Assembly: GCA_965248445.1 (NCBI GenBank)
Contig: CBDFJG010000001.1
Coordinates: forward strand, 558,131 to 622,130
From: Planctomycetota bacterium
Lineage (GTDB): Bacteria > Planctomycetota > JAJSAM01 > JAJVHW01
Length of the DNA stretch: 64,000 nt
Direction of reading: 5' to 3'
Positions 34,919 to 38,528 of this stretch are shown piece after piece; within the stretch, counting starts at the first letter, position 1, and each line of letters starts with the position of its first letter. Under the pieces are notes generated by a model that saw only the letters and a program-made list of their open reading frames with translations, was not told the DNA's origin and did not search any database. Made by a program: the position numbers and the translations under genes.

Positions 34919-37006
34919 TTAGCCGGGCAAATCCCTGCGGTCAACTTCTCCGGTTGTCCCCGGATCGGGCTCTTGAGGCGCACGCGCGAGACCGAACAGG
35001 ACGGCGACCCCGGCCACGACGATCAGCAGCGAGACGCCGACCGCGACGCCGTTGTCGCCGCCAGCATGATCGTGTGCGCTGGCGAGCATCGAGTCCTCGC
35101 CCAGCTTCGCGGTCAGCACCAAGGACGCGTTGTTGAGCGCGTGCGCGGCGATCGCCGGCCAGATCGAGCGGCCGGCGACGGCGAGCAGGCCGAGCAGGAG
35201 CCCGACGAGGAAGGTGCCGAGCCACTTCTCTGGGTAGATGTGAAAGACCGCGAAGAGCGCGGCGGTGGCGACCACAGCGGTGACGCCCGGGCGGCCGCGT
35301 CGCTTCTTCGTCGCCGAGAGTCCCGACATGACGAAGCCCCGGTAGAAGAGCTCCTCGCAGACGGCCGGAAGCACCCCGATCAGGAGCACCAGCACGACGG
35401 CGGGCGTCGACTGCACCAGCGCCTCGAACGCCTCCGCGAGCTTGTGGAACGGCCCCTCCGGCGCGATCTCGCCGATCACGTGGTGCTGGATGAAGCCGTT
35501 GACCACCGGCGCAGCGAGGCCGAGCGGCACCGCGAGGAGCATCGCGAGCGCCTGAGGACGGCGCAACCGGAACGTGTCGCGGAACGACACGTGGAACCAC
35601 CACGCGAACAGTGCACAGGGCGCGGCGATCACCAGCGCCTGCGTCGCAAACACGTTCTCGAGCAGGTTCTCGGTCGGGAGAACGGGCTGCAGGTACCAGA
35701 TCAGCGCGAGCGAGATGGTGCAGAGCGTCAGCGCCGTCGCGGGCGTCGGGAAGCGTCGGGACTTGGGCCGCTGGAGCAGCGGCGCGCTGCCCTCCGGGCC
35801 GCGGAACAGCGTCTCCTCCCGCAAGAAGAGCTGCACCGTGCCGTAGAGCGCGAGTCCGGCGGTCGCGACGGTCGAGAGAAGCGTGATCGCGGCAATCGTC
35901 CCGTCGAACTTGCCGACCATCAGGTCGCGGAAGAAGAGCACTACGTTCGTGATCGGGAGCGCCGCAAGCGTCGGCGTCAATTCGATGCCCGGGATCACGA
36001 CCACCATCGCGAGCGGCATGACCAGCAGGAACATCGGCGTCAGGTAATGCTGCGCCTCCTTGACGCTGCGCGCCATCGTCGAGAGCGCGATCGAGAGCGC
36101 GCTGAACAGTGCGGCGAGCGGGACGAGCAGCGCGAGGATCCCCAACACCGACAACGGCCCGAGCGACAGCCCTTCCATGCCCTCGACGCCCATCGAACTG
36201 ACCAGCGGGCCGAGCGTCAGCCACATCGACAGCAGATTGAGCAGGGCCGCGACGAGCGTGACGGCGCCCACCGCGAGGTACTTCCCGAGAACGAGCTCCT
36301 GGCGGCTGCACGGCGCCACCAGCAGCGTCTCCATCGTGCCGCGTTCCTTCTCGCCGGCGACGACATCGACCGCGGGGTAGAAGCTGCTCGTCAGCGTCAT
36401 CAGCAGGAGAATGAGTGCGAGCATCTTTCCGAGCACGTAACCCGACCGCGCCTCGGACGACGCGATGTCGAGCGATTCGCGGACCTCGATCGGTTTCAGC
36501 CACGATGCCGGCAGCTCGTGGTCGCCCAAGCGTTCGAGGAGGATGCGATCGGCCGCGAGTTGCGCGCGGCTCTGCCACTTGCGGCGGGCGGCACGGCTCT
36601 CGTCGTCGCTGCTGTCGTGGTGCACGACGACACCAGCCGAACGGTCTCCGGCGAGCGCCGCGGCGGCGCCGTCCGTGGCCTCGACCCACAGTGCGATCTC
36701 TCCGCGCGCAAGCGAAGCGGCCGGATCATCGACCGGGACGACCTGAAGGTCCGGATCTTCTCCCTCTTCCCAGCGGAACACGGCGTCCGCGATCACCGCG
36801 GCGTCCTGACCGGTGACGGCGACGGTCTGCGCGCGCGCGGCGATACGCTGGCGCTGTTTCCCGATCAGCGGCCCGACGGCCAGCATCATCATCGGGTAGA
36901 GCAGCACCGGCACGACGAGCGCGACGAACAGCGTGCGGCGATCGCGGGCTGCTTCGAGCAGTTCCTTCTGCGCGACGAGCAGCACCGTGCGAAGGCTGAG
37001 CTTCAT
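34919..37006 (-). CDS. ABC-2 type transporter permease fused to a C-terminal CPBP (CAAX/Abi-type) intramembrane metalloprotease domain
   Basis: 695 aa; ATG at 37006 overlaps the upstream stop (ATGA); N-terminal ~400 aa polytopic ABC-2-like; C-terminal domain has the three CPBP motifs EELFYR, FAVFH and HALNN. Confidence 0.75.
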   Translation of the reverse strand: MKLSLRTVLLVAQKELLEAARDRRTLFVALVVPVLLYPMMMLAVGPLIGKQRQRIAARAQTVAVTGQDAAVIADAVFRWEEGEDPDLQVVPVDDPAASLARGEIALWVEATDGAAAALAGDRSAGVVVHHDSSDDESRAARRKWQSRAQLAADRILLERLGDHELPASWLKPIEVRESLDIASSEARSGYVLGKMLALILLLMTLTSSFYPAVDVVAGEKERGTMETLLVAPCSRQELVLGKYLAVGAVTLVAALLNLLSMWLTLGPLVSSMGVEGMEGLSLGPLSVLGILALLVPLAALFSALSIALSTMARSVKEAQHYLTPMFLLVMPLAMVVVIPGIELTPTLAALPITNVVLFFRDLMVGKFDGTIAAITLLSTVATAGLALYGTVQLFLREETLFRGPEGSAPLLQRPKSRRFPTPATALTLCTISLALIWYLQPVLPTENLLENVFATQALVIAAPCALFAWWFHVSFRDTFRLRRPQALAMLLAVPLGLAAPVVNGFIQHHVIGEIAPEGPFHKLAEAFEALVQSTPAVVLVLLIGVLPAVCEELFYRGFVMSGLSATKKRRGRPGVTAVVATAALFAVFHIYPEKWLGTFLVGLLLGLLAVAGRSIWPAIAAHALNNASLVLTAKLGEDSMLASAHDHAGGDNGVAVGVSLLIVVAGVAVLFGLARAPQEPDPGTTGEVDRRDLPG

Positions 37007-37754
37007 CCCCGCACCAACCGGAAGAACGCGTCTTCGAGGTTCGACTCACCGGTGCGTGCTTGCAGCTCCGCGAGCGTGCCCTTGGCGAGCACCTTGCCCT
37101 CGTGGACGATCACGATTCGATCGCACAGCCGCTCCGCCTCGCTGAAGAGGTGCGTCGAGAGGAGGATCGCCCGGCCCTGCGTGCGCGCGGACTCCACGAA
37201 CTCCACGACGTTGCGCGCCACGATCACGTCGAGGTTGGCGGTCGGCTCGTCGAGCACGAGGACCGGCGGGTCGTGGATGATCGCCCGCGCCAGCGAGACC
37301 TTCTGGCGTTGTCCAGCGGAGAGCCGTCCACAGACCCGGTCGCAGAAGTCGTTCATCTCGAGCAGGTCGAGGACCTCGCTCACGCGGGCCGTGAGGGCGG
37401 TCTCGTCCATGCCGTGGAGACGGGCGTAGTACACGAGCGTCTCGCGGCCGGTCAGGCGTTCGTACACGCCCGTCGAGGACGACACGAACCCGAGTCGCCG
37501 GCGCACGCCGTCCGGGTCCTCCTGAACGTCGCGGCCGCCGACGCGCGCGCTGCCCGAAGTCGGCTGCAGGATCGTGGCGAGGATACGCAGCGCCGTCGTC
37601 TTGCCGGCGCCGTTCGGTCCGAGCAGCCCGACGATCTCGCCGCTCGCACACGTGAACGACACGCCGTCCACGGCGCGCACCTCGCCCCCGCCCGGAGCGC
37701 GGAAGATCTTGTAGAGGTCACGGACCTCGACGGCGGGGCCGGAGGTGAGTTCGC
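37003..37754 (-). CDS. ABC transporter ATP-binding protein
   Basis: Walker A GPNGAGKTT, signature LSAGQRQKVSLA, Walker B VLVLDEPTANLD, H-loop LSTH. Start assigned to TTG at 37754 overlapping the PP2C stop; start is uncertain. Confidence 0.85.
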
Positions 37755-38528
37755 TCAATCGGGGATGTAGATGTTGGAGTCGTCGTCGTCGTCCGAGTCG
37801 AGGCGCGCGATGAGGACGGTGATGTTGTCTTTGCCGCCGCGTTCGTTCGCGAGGTCGATCAGCGCCTGCGTGCTCCGCTGAAGATCCAGGTCGCTCATCT
37901 GCATCGTGGCGAGGATCTCCTGGCCGTTGGCGAGGTCCGACAGGCCGTCGCTGCAGAGCAGGTACAGATCCCCGGGCTCGGCGGGGAACACGTTCACGTC
38001 GGCCTTGCACTTGACGCCGGTCCCGATGGCCCGCGTGATGATGTTGCGGTAGGGACTGCGCTCGGCCTCCTCCGCGGAGATCAGCCCGGCGCGCAGCTGC
38101 GCGTTCACGAACGAGTGGTCCTCGGTGATCTGCTCGATGCCGCCGTCACGAATGCGATAGACGCGGCTGTCACCGACGTGCGCCACGACGACGAAGTCCT
38201 CCTGGTGGTAGACCAGCGCGACGGTCGTGCCCATCTCCTGATAGCGGTCGTCGATCGCACCGAAGCCATGTACGGCCTTGTTGACGTCACGCAGCCACGT
38301 GTCGAGCGTCTGCTTGAACGCATTCGCGACGACCGGCTCGGAGATGGCGCTCCGGCCACGCAGCGTCTCGGGGAAGTACTTCTTGAAGGTCTTGTTCAGC
38401 GTCGAGACGCAGAGCGAGGACGCCACCTCGCCGAAGTCCCGCCCGCCCATGCCGTCCGCGACCACGCAGAACCCGTCCTTCTCGGACCAGTACAGCGTGT
38501 CCTCGTTCAGTTCGCGGCGGAGGCCCAC
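37755..38528 (-). CDS. PP2C-family Ser/Thr protein phosphatase
   Basis: KTDVGLRRELNED, VADGMGG, GDSRVY, LLCSDGLSD and DNITVL motifs. The true N-terminus probably extends a few codons beyond the GTG at 38528; no canonical start found in frame. Confidence 0.8.
   Translation of the reverse strand: MGLRRELNEDTLYWSEKDGFCVVADGMGGRDFGEVASSLCVSTLNKTFKKYFPETLRGRSAISEPVVANAFKQTLDTWLRDVNKAVHGFGAIDDRYQEMGTTVALVYHQEDFVVVAHVGDSRVYRIRDGGIEQITEDHSFVNAQLRAGLISAEEAERSPYRNIITRAIGTGVKCKADVNVFPAEPGDLYLLCSDGLSDLANGQEILATMQMSDLDLQRSTQALIDLANERGGKDNITVLIARLDSDDDDDSNIYIPD

Follow-up and report, generated by a model that had tools for sequence, protein, structure and literature searches.

Type V half-transporters of the ATP-binding cassette (ABC) superfamily are complexes of two transmembrane (TM) domains and two nucleotide-binding domains (NBDs), and many type V ABC transporters pull hydrophobic or amphipathic substrates out of the membrane. 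In the peptidase-containing ABC exporters (PCATs), a C39 peptidase is fused to an ABC exporter, and cleavage can be coupled to ATP-driven translocation; to our knowledge, NatB, the permease of Bacillus subtilis NatAB, has no CPBP domain. The CPBP proteins Rce1, MroQ, and MrtX cleave membrane-anchored, often lipidated, polypeptides (PMC11980579). The results described below concern a stretch of 64,000 nucleotides from a Planctomycetota bacterium (assembly GCA_965248445.1, contig CBDFJG010000001.1, positions 558,131 to 622,130; hereafter the window), in which a minus-strand operon encodes a PP2C phosphatase, an ABC ATPase, and a membrane protein joining an ABC-2 permease to a CPBP intramembrane protease. 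Taken as a whole, the locus is probably best explained as a real operon specifying an ATP-driven cut-and-extract machine that would couple intramembrane cleavage to extraction or export.

Rce1 (MmRce1, Protein Data Bank (PDB) entry 4cad), SpdC/LyrA (6u0o), MroQ, and MrtX are stand-alone proteins, whereas the CPBP domain in the window forms one polypeptide with an ABC permease; the window protein also scores below the cut-off of every named CPBP subfamily, including MrtX-type, MroQ, and PEP-CTERM-associated. Among the type V exporters (NosFY, Wzm/Wzt, KpsMT, TarGH, CcmAB, PmtCD, and ABCG/ABCA/ABCH), no solved relative carries a protease domain, and the sequence similarity of the window permease to them is marginal (NosY, E 5.9e-05). 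The likeness to PCATs is one of logic: PCATs pair a type IV exporter with a cysteine peptidase that is soluble, whereas in the window an intramembrane protease of the glutamic type is attached to a type V permease, the ATPase being a separate chain, and membership of the PCAT family was rejected, the folds differing throughout. B. subtilis NatAB resembles the system in its NatB-like permease architecture and in the automatic JGI/KEGG name, but the invariant protease active site of the window family argues for a different job. The members of NCBIfam family NF041647, matched over the full length, share the architecture of two domains and the neighboring ATPase gene, and differ in context only, namely in the PP2C gene that stands ahead of the pair in this Planctomycetota clade.

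The operon and its permease–protease fusion

The open reading frame (ORF) listing of the window, which has a G+C content of about 69%, gives three minus-strand ORFs (37755..38528, 37003..38010, and 34919..37006). Because both junctions were read directly in the sequence ('ccc gat TGA' over 'TTG agc gaa ctc' between PP2C and ATPase, and 'ggg gga TGA' over 'ATG aag ctc' between ATPase and permease), the TTGA and ATGA overlaps that an earlier note on this DNA had described for the three genes are confirmed, and TTG 37758 is the start codon of the ATPase gene. The order PP2C phosphatase, ABC ATPase, and 695-residue membrane protein is a real, tightly coupled operon, in which PP2C, as judged from the gene overlap, appears to be co-transcribed and translationally coupled with the ATPase; the block probably extends over 34919..38558, if PP2C begins at a non-canonical ATC (see below). 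The tRNA-Arg gene that the note had placed beside the operon was recovered by both ARAGORN and Rfam as tRNA-Arg(ACG), 34 nucleotides (nt) past the permease stop, and was the sole match of the Rfam scan; a promoter and terminator scan yielded nothing useful.

All four domain calls of the note (PP2C, ABC ATPase, ABC-2, and CPBP) were likewise correct, with Pfam scores above the gathering scores. The ATPase matches ABC_tran at 116.6 bits over residues 31–174, and its score against the NCBIfam drrA subfamily model (244.5 bits) falls below the cut-off of 312. In the fused protein, ABC2_membrane_2 (PF12679, 82.6 bits) and ABC2_membrane_3 (PF12698, 74.7 bits) cover residues 11–384, and the Rce1-like PF02517 matches residues 536–627 at 77.2 bits against a cut-off of 22.4, so that the C-terminal part passes the CPBP profile search. 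The presence of an N-terminal ABC-2 part and a C-terminal CPBP part in one polypeptide was confirmed by Pfam and by a single confident AlphaFold2 (AF2) chain.

The CPBP motifs EExxxR, FxxxH, and HxxxN are all present and conserved, in agreement with the note, as EELFYR (residues 551–556), FAVFH (585–589), and HALNN (622–626). In alignments of 20 and 80 homologs, extending down to about 28% identity, residues E551, E552, R556, F585, H589, H622, and N626 are invariant in the 80 homologs, as is the ABC-2 helix GEKERGTxExLL (residues 218–229). The AF2 model, computed from the 80-sequence alignment (mean pLDDT 90, pTM 0.85), begins with an amphipathic helix and TM1, followed by an α/β domain and five more TM helices, includes the short re-entrant helices that ABC-2 permeases typically have, and leads through a basic linker of 20 residues (401–421) into the CPBP part, where EExxxR lies on the fourth, FxxxH on the fifth, and HxxxN on the seventh helix, as in Rce1. 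The model thus has a six-helix ABC-2 transmembrane fold, with a separate NBD, and an Rce1-like helical fold for the CPBP domain.

Structure comparison of the N-terminal half gave matches to NosY (17.1), ABCG2 (15.0), KpsM (13.9), CcmB (13.2), PmtD (12.5), TarG (11.3), and Wzm (11.2), in agreement with Foldseek (ABCH-9C, NosY, ABCA, and ABCG); the C-terminal half resembles SpdC/LyrA (14.6) and MmRce1 (10.9), and the outside domain a Thermotoga ABC-2 domain (3cni, 7.9). Sequence-profile matches to the PDB are marginal for Rce1 (E 9e-4), as for NosY, and the PDB comparison returned no solved structure joining ABC-2 permease and CPBP parts. Lys plus Arg residues average 5.3, 3.7, and 2.9 in the three loops predicted to be cytoplasmic and 0.4, 1.9, 0.0, and 0.8 in those predicted to lie outside, which by the positive-inside rule suggests an ABC-2 domain with both termini inside (N-in, C-in) and, after it, a CPBP domain that is N-in. 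In this Rce1-like orientation, the protease cavity would be accessible from the cytoplasmic side or the inner leaflet. From the alignment and the model together, the C-terminal part appears to be a complete eight-helix Rce1-like glutamic intramembrane endopeptidase with its active site intact.

Against NF041647 (ABC_perm_CPBP), the fused protein scores 577.8 bits (cut-off 435), with residues 5–633 aligned to profile positions 2–634 of 636. This model is a curated NCBIfam equivalog and already serves as an NCBI product name on several homologs. A search of a 5.8-billion-protein collection found, among the scored candidates, 525 homologs with E ≤ 1e-10; nearly all of 120 listed homologs combine PF12698/PF12679 with PF02517, and one database protein (NCBI/ENA, P0001) is 100% identical to the window protein. 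In one-genome-per-species contigs, at least 592 species-level loci encode fused or unfused relatives, and our locus comparisons cover the best 80 of them, with the CPBP part detected by tblastn in 74 and two further loci cut by contig ends. Among the taxa represented in these 80 loci are Planctomycetota, Gemmatimonadota/Longimicrobiales, Zixibacteria, Cloacimonadota, Ca. Kuenenia, Sericytochromatia, and Clostridia (Romboutsia and Lachnospiraceae), and the family ranges over at least six phyla. Because the family is curated, supplies an NCBI product name, and is spread across phyla, with at least 74 of the best 80 loci fused, the supposition that an ABC-2::CPBP fusion is unusual is not supported; the window protein is an unremarkable representative of a family that is catalogued and widespread, though functionally unstudied.

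An orthologous ATPase gene adjoins the permease gene in 75 of the 80 loci, as determined by tblastn with the window proteins. Five fused loci (L002, L004, L009, L020, and L030, in our numbering of the related loci) showed none within 8 kb upstream in the same search, and may encode their ATPase elsewhere or on the other side. On comparative sequence evidence, the ATPase and the fused permease appear to be a conserved functional unit, and the ATPase is the only family-wide partner. All-against-all clustering of the neighboring ORFs of 86 loci revealed no further partner common to different lineages and no recurrent small-peptide, bacteriocin, or defense neighbor, so that the small peptide genes envisaged in the note do not recur near the operon. 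The next commonest neighbors, an amidohydrolase gene and an apparent radical-SAM menaquinone gene (a label that is unchecked), in 16 Planctomycetia loci, are a matter of lineage synteny. PADLOC-DB 2.0 gave no match for the fusion protein and only generic, domain-level matches for the ATPase, PP2C, and the kinase, and a role as a defense system was rejected, the fusion lacking a PADLOC match and the locus a conserved defense neighbor.

Table 1. Features of the window (positions on the 64,000-nt stretch)
Feature	Position	Strand	Remarks
Stp1/IreP-type PP2C Ser/Thr phosphatase (predicted)	37755..38558	-	267 aa from ATC 38558 (probable start); 257 aa from GTG 38528
ABC ATPase, DrrA-like nucleotide-binding subunit	37003..37758	-	251 aa; start overlaps PP2C stop, stop overlaps permease start
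ABC-2 permease::CPBP intramembrane protease	34919..37006	-	695 aa; NCBIfam NF041647
Type V (ABC-2, NatB-like) transmembrane domain	35807..37006	-	residues 1-400; 6 TM helices (model)
Extracytoplasmic α/β domain between TM1 and TM2	36458..36835	-	residues 58-183, ~125 residues (model)
8-TM Rce1-like CPBP glutamic endopeptidase domain	34982..35743	-	residues 422-675 (model)
tRNA-Arg(ACG)	34809..34885	-	ARAGORN and Rfam; 34 nt downstream of permease stop
32-nt direct repeat, tRNA-Arg 3' end	34805-34836		att-like
32-nt direct repeat, exact copy	33738-33769		att-like
Kinase N-lobe fragment	33583..34146		runs straight into the tRNA-end copy
Kinase start	34088-34132		
Duplicate of kinase start	34684-34728		45 nt, 87% identical
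IS-dense island	~15400-33400		downstream of tRNA-Arg
IS1380-like transposase	15495-16922		
Ser/Thr kinase fused to periplasmic-binding domain	17895-20120		low G+C (0.53)
NosD-like β-helix protein	20699-22270		
IS66 transposase	22426-23859		domain scores identical to those of the third IS66 transposase
IS1595 transposase	24889-25908		
IS66 transposase	28038-29627		
IS66 transposase	29963-31396		domain scores identical to those of the first IS66 transposase
NosD-like β-helix protein	32209-33360		
ORF of 150 aa	38674-39126	+	between PP2C gene and arginine cluster
ORF of 336 aa	40527-41537	+	between argininosuccinate-synthase-like gene and argC

The PP2C phosphatase, its start codon, and its linkage to the pump

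The PP2C protein matches Pfam PP2C_2 (72.2 bits, residues 5–204), contains the motifs NED, DGMGG, GDSR, SDGL, and KDN, and finds its best PDB match in S. agalactiae Stp1 (2pk0, E 2.5e-34). The protein, which is soluble and ends in an acidic tail, is by these sequence criteria a standard Stp1-type enzyme. Counted from the GTG at 38528, the first canonical start, it scores 226.6 bits against NF033484 (Stp1/IreP, cut-off 230); with a 30-nt upstream extension, the match spans the whole profile (positions 1–231) and rises to 232 bits, a marginal pass that depends on the non-canonical start. The GTG drops the conserved first strand (IRITCFGKTD), which is encoded in frame upstream. Ten codon positions upstream of the GTG, the codon is ATC in the window, L001, L027, L081, and L084, ATT in L082, and ATG in L085 and L086; no canonical in-frame start lies anywhere upstream in the window, L027, or L082, and in all six loci with ATC or ATT, a GGAGG-like (Shine-Dalgarno-like) sequence precedes that codon by 6–7 nt. 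It is probable from this pattern that PP2C initiates at a conserved non-canonical AUC/AUU codon, 30 nt upstream of the GTG, and that gene callers truncate the gene because its start is non-canonical.

Genes for PP2C lie directly upstream of the ATPase gene in eight genomes, comprising the window, L001 (permease 61% identical to that of the window), L034, L081 and L082 (63%), L084 (51%), L085 (about 41%), and the contig encoding homolog P0014 (55%), whose flanks differ and consist of a PIN/PhdYeFM pair and sulfate-assimilation genes. In L086 (permease 38%) and L027, PP2C is 3.3–3.7 kb from the pump and still beside the arginine cluster, the insertion in L086 consisting of a GntR/ABC cassette on the opposite strand together with a CBS gene. 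None of the other 77 loci in the scan of 80, all with permeases at most 37% identical, gave a PP2C match by tblastn (E ≤ 1e-3, ±8 kb). The block shared through the clade consists of a divergent arginine-biosynthesis cluster, PP2C, ATPase, permease::CPBP, and tRNA-Arg(ACG), the last directly following the fused permease in L001, L027, L081, L082, L084, L085, and L086; the three genes whose linkage the note had remarked upon are hence syntenic in genomes related to the window. Since the whole block is conserved through the clade, the PP2C link is real and old, but it arose once and is confined to the Planctomycetota clade of the window. It is compatible with either Ser/Thr-phosphorylation control of the pump or inherited gene order, and this clade-specific context is a modest new detail.

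Two neighboring ORFs (Table 1) deserve mention. The 336-aa ORF within the arginine cluster has no Pfam or NCBIfam match, and at the same position in L081, L082, L084, L085, and L086 there is a gene of 337–341 aa, also without a Pfam match; the ORF could be a missing step of the arginine pathway. The 150-aa ORF carries a lipoprotein-like signal (…LALGGC…), has neither a family match nor a counterpart at any related locus, and may be lineage-specific or spurious.

The tRNA boundary and the kinase fragments

The 3' end of the tRNA-Arg gene is part of a 32-nt att-like direct repeat, an exact copy of which lies about 1 kb further on. Enclosed between the repeats are a duplicate of a kinase start, a weak GAF-like ORF to which this duplicate is joined (GAF_2 22.2 and GAF 21.0 bits, both below the Pfam gathering scores), and the kinase N-lobe, which runs straight into the second repeat copy. 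The repeat and the enclosed segment look like the remnant of integration and recombination at the tRNA. Beyond them extends an island dense in insertion sequences (IS), which also contains two NosD-like proteins and a further Ser/Thr kinase gene of low G+C (Table 1). In L083 (positions 5407–9400), a series of small genes, some with XRE/HTH domains, comes after the tRNA-Arg(ACG) and resembles an integrated element; this insert supports the view of tRNA-Arg as an integration hot spot in the lineage.

None of the relatives examined has a kinase beside the operon, and other genes follow the tRNA there. Because the tRNA boundary is conserved, the att-like repeat and the IS island lie beyond it, and the kinase is absent from relatives, the kinase was rejected as a component of the system; its fragments and the GAF-like one are debris left at an integration hot spot linked to the tRNA and do not belong with the operon. 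The earlier note, in stressing the position of the operon beside disrupted kinase remnants, was right that such fragments exist, but their supposed relevance did not survive, as they lie beyond a clade-conserved tRNA in an IS-dense island and no relative has the kinase.

A proposed cut-and-extract mechanism and its alternatives

In the predicted mechanism, two copies of the ATPase and two of the permease–protease would assemble into a single complex of the cytoplasmic membrane. Oriented N-in as in Rce1, the CPBP domain would cleave a polypeptide that is embedded in the membrane and possibly lipid-modified, in or close to the inner leaflet, and the ABC-2 domain would use ATP to pull the substrate or a cleavage product out of the bilayer or to expel it. 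The logic would be that of the peptidase-containing ABC exporters, built from different folds. In the window clade, PP2C may have been added for phospho-control of the pump, or may merely reflect the retention of an old gene order. We regard as unlikely, though worth stating, the stronger proposition that the NF041647 pumps form an unrecognized cut-and-extract class, in which the glutamic intramembrane protease and the type V ABC extractor act on the same membrane-embedded (lipo)peptide, switched in this clade by Ser/Thr phosphorylation through a dedicated PP2C, whose own synthesis would be throttled by the AUC/AUU start.

Several observations weigh against this mechanism. The coupling of cleavage to transport is proposed by analogy only, and the active-site orientation is predicted from the model and the positive-inside rule. 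We found no functional study of, or experiment on, any NF041647-type fusion in the literature, in which the single paper citing NF041647 reports only a partial domain match for a stand-alone CPBP gene; ORF clustering of the 86 loci likewise revealed, in any lineage, no conserved gene beside the pair that might encode a substrate. Four of the 80 loci (L050, L054, L055, and L073, from Zixibacteria and Acidobacteria) encode unfused NatB-like permeases, and together with the five fused loci without a nearby ATPase they indicate that each half can function without the other. Non-catalytic scaffolds exist among CPBP proteins, SpdC, the best structural match of the protease domain, being one; here, however, the catalytic residues are invariant in the 80 homologs. 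As to PP2C, it has stayed with the arginine cluster and not with the pump after the insertions in L027 and L086, and, with conservation extending over the entire block, the link may amount to neutral synteny.

The alternatives that we considered are each weaker than the cut-and-extract mechanism. That the proteins form a NatAB-type sodium (cation) efflux pump, with the CPBP domain as an accessory or inert appendage, is suggested by the JGI label 'sodium transport system permease protein' on many homologs and by the NatB-like ABC2_membrane_3 architecture with its large TM1–TM2 loop. The label, however, is an automatic transfer, the libraries used gave no match to a NatB-specific curated model, and the structural neighbors of the permease handle lipids, glycolipids, heme, peptides, and protein partners, not ions; moreover, the invariance of the seven CPBP motif residues down to about 28% identity indicates that proteolysis, rather than ion transport, is under selection, so that we consider such a pump highly improbable. 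Self-protection against membrane-active antimicrobial peptides by a single protein that unites two known immunity devices, the Abi/CPBP immunity protein and the LanFEG-like expulsion pump of ABC-2 type, would be a less remote though still unlikely explanation: no gene for a bacteriocin, RiPP, or peptide is conserved in the vicinity, the context in the window clade is stable and of a housekeeping nature (from the arginine-biosynthesis cluster to the tRNA gene), and the ATPase reaches only 134.7 bits against the lantibiotic-protection model TIGR03740, whose cut-off is 309.75.

The domain could also act as a myxosortase-type sorting enzyme, with the CPBP part removing the C-terminal membrane anchor of surface proteins and the ABC part clearing the anchor peptide or aiding release. 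MrtX has been shown experimentally to be a CPBP sorting protease (PMC11980579), and the best secondary NCBIfam matches of the C-terminal domain are Mrt_core, MrtS, and MrtJ, but these scores (40.7 against a cut-off of 100, 40.8 against 130, and 40.3 against 75), like those of MrtP (30.3 against 250) and MrtC (29.0 against 195), fall far short, and myxosortase, PEP-CTERM-CAAX, and MroQ membership were all rejected on this ground. No sorting-signal protein is encoded nearby, and the predicted eight-TM, N-in topology would place the active site on the face opposite to that in the seven-TM MrtX (PMC11980579), which makes a sorting role improbable. We hold equally improbable an export or defense module in which PP2C and the now-disrupted Ser/Thr kinase switch the pump, the proposal closest to that of the earlier note. 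The translational coupling of PP2C to the ATPase, its adjacency in eight genomes including one with different flanks, and its better conservation than that of the permease within the clade (56–70% versus about 38–63% identity) speak for it; against it are the location of the kinase fragments past the conserved tRNA-Arg, in a repeat-flanked segment of about 1 kb in an IS66/IS1595/IS1380-rich island, the lack of a kinase at that position in relatives, the nil PADLOC result for the fusion with generic matches for the other proteins, and the single origin of the PP2C association, broken in L027 and L086.

As a discovery, the locus is weak, the fusion being already a curated family and an identical protein already public. 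Its value lies in the family, which is widespread, has an invariant protease active site, and keeps its ATPase partner in 75 of the 80 loci, and which offers a clean case for asking how intramembrane proteolysis could be coupled to ABC-driven extraction. Cultured carriers are among the matches (Singulisphaera sp. PoT, Aeoliella sp. SH292, and Romboutsia weinsteinii), making genetics feasible, and the PP2C linkage and the apparent AUC/AUU start provide two small handles on regulation.

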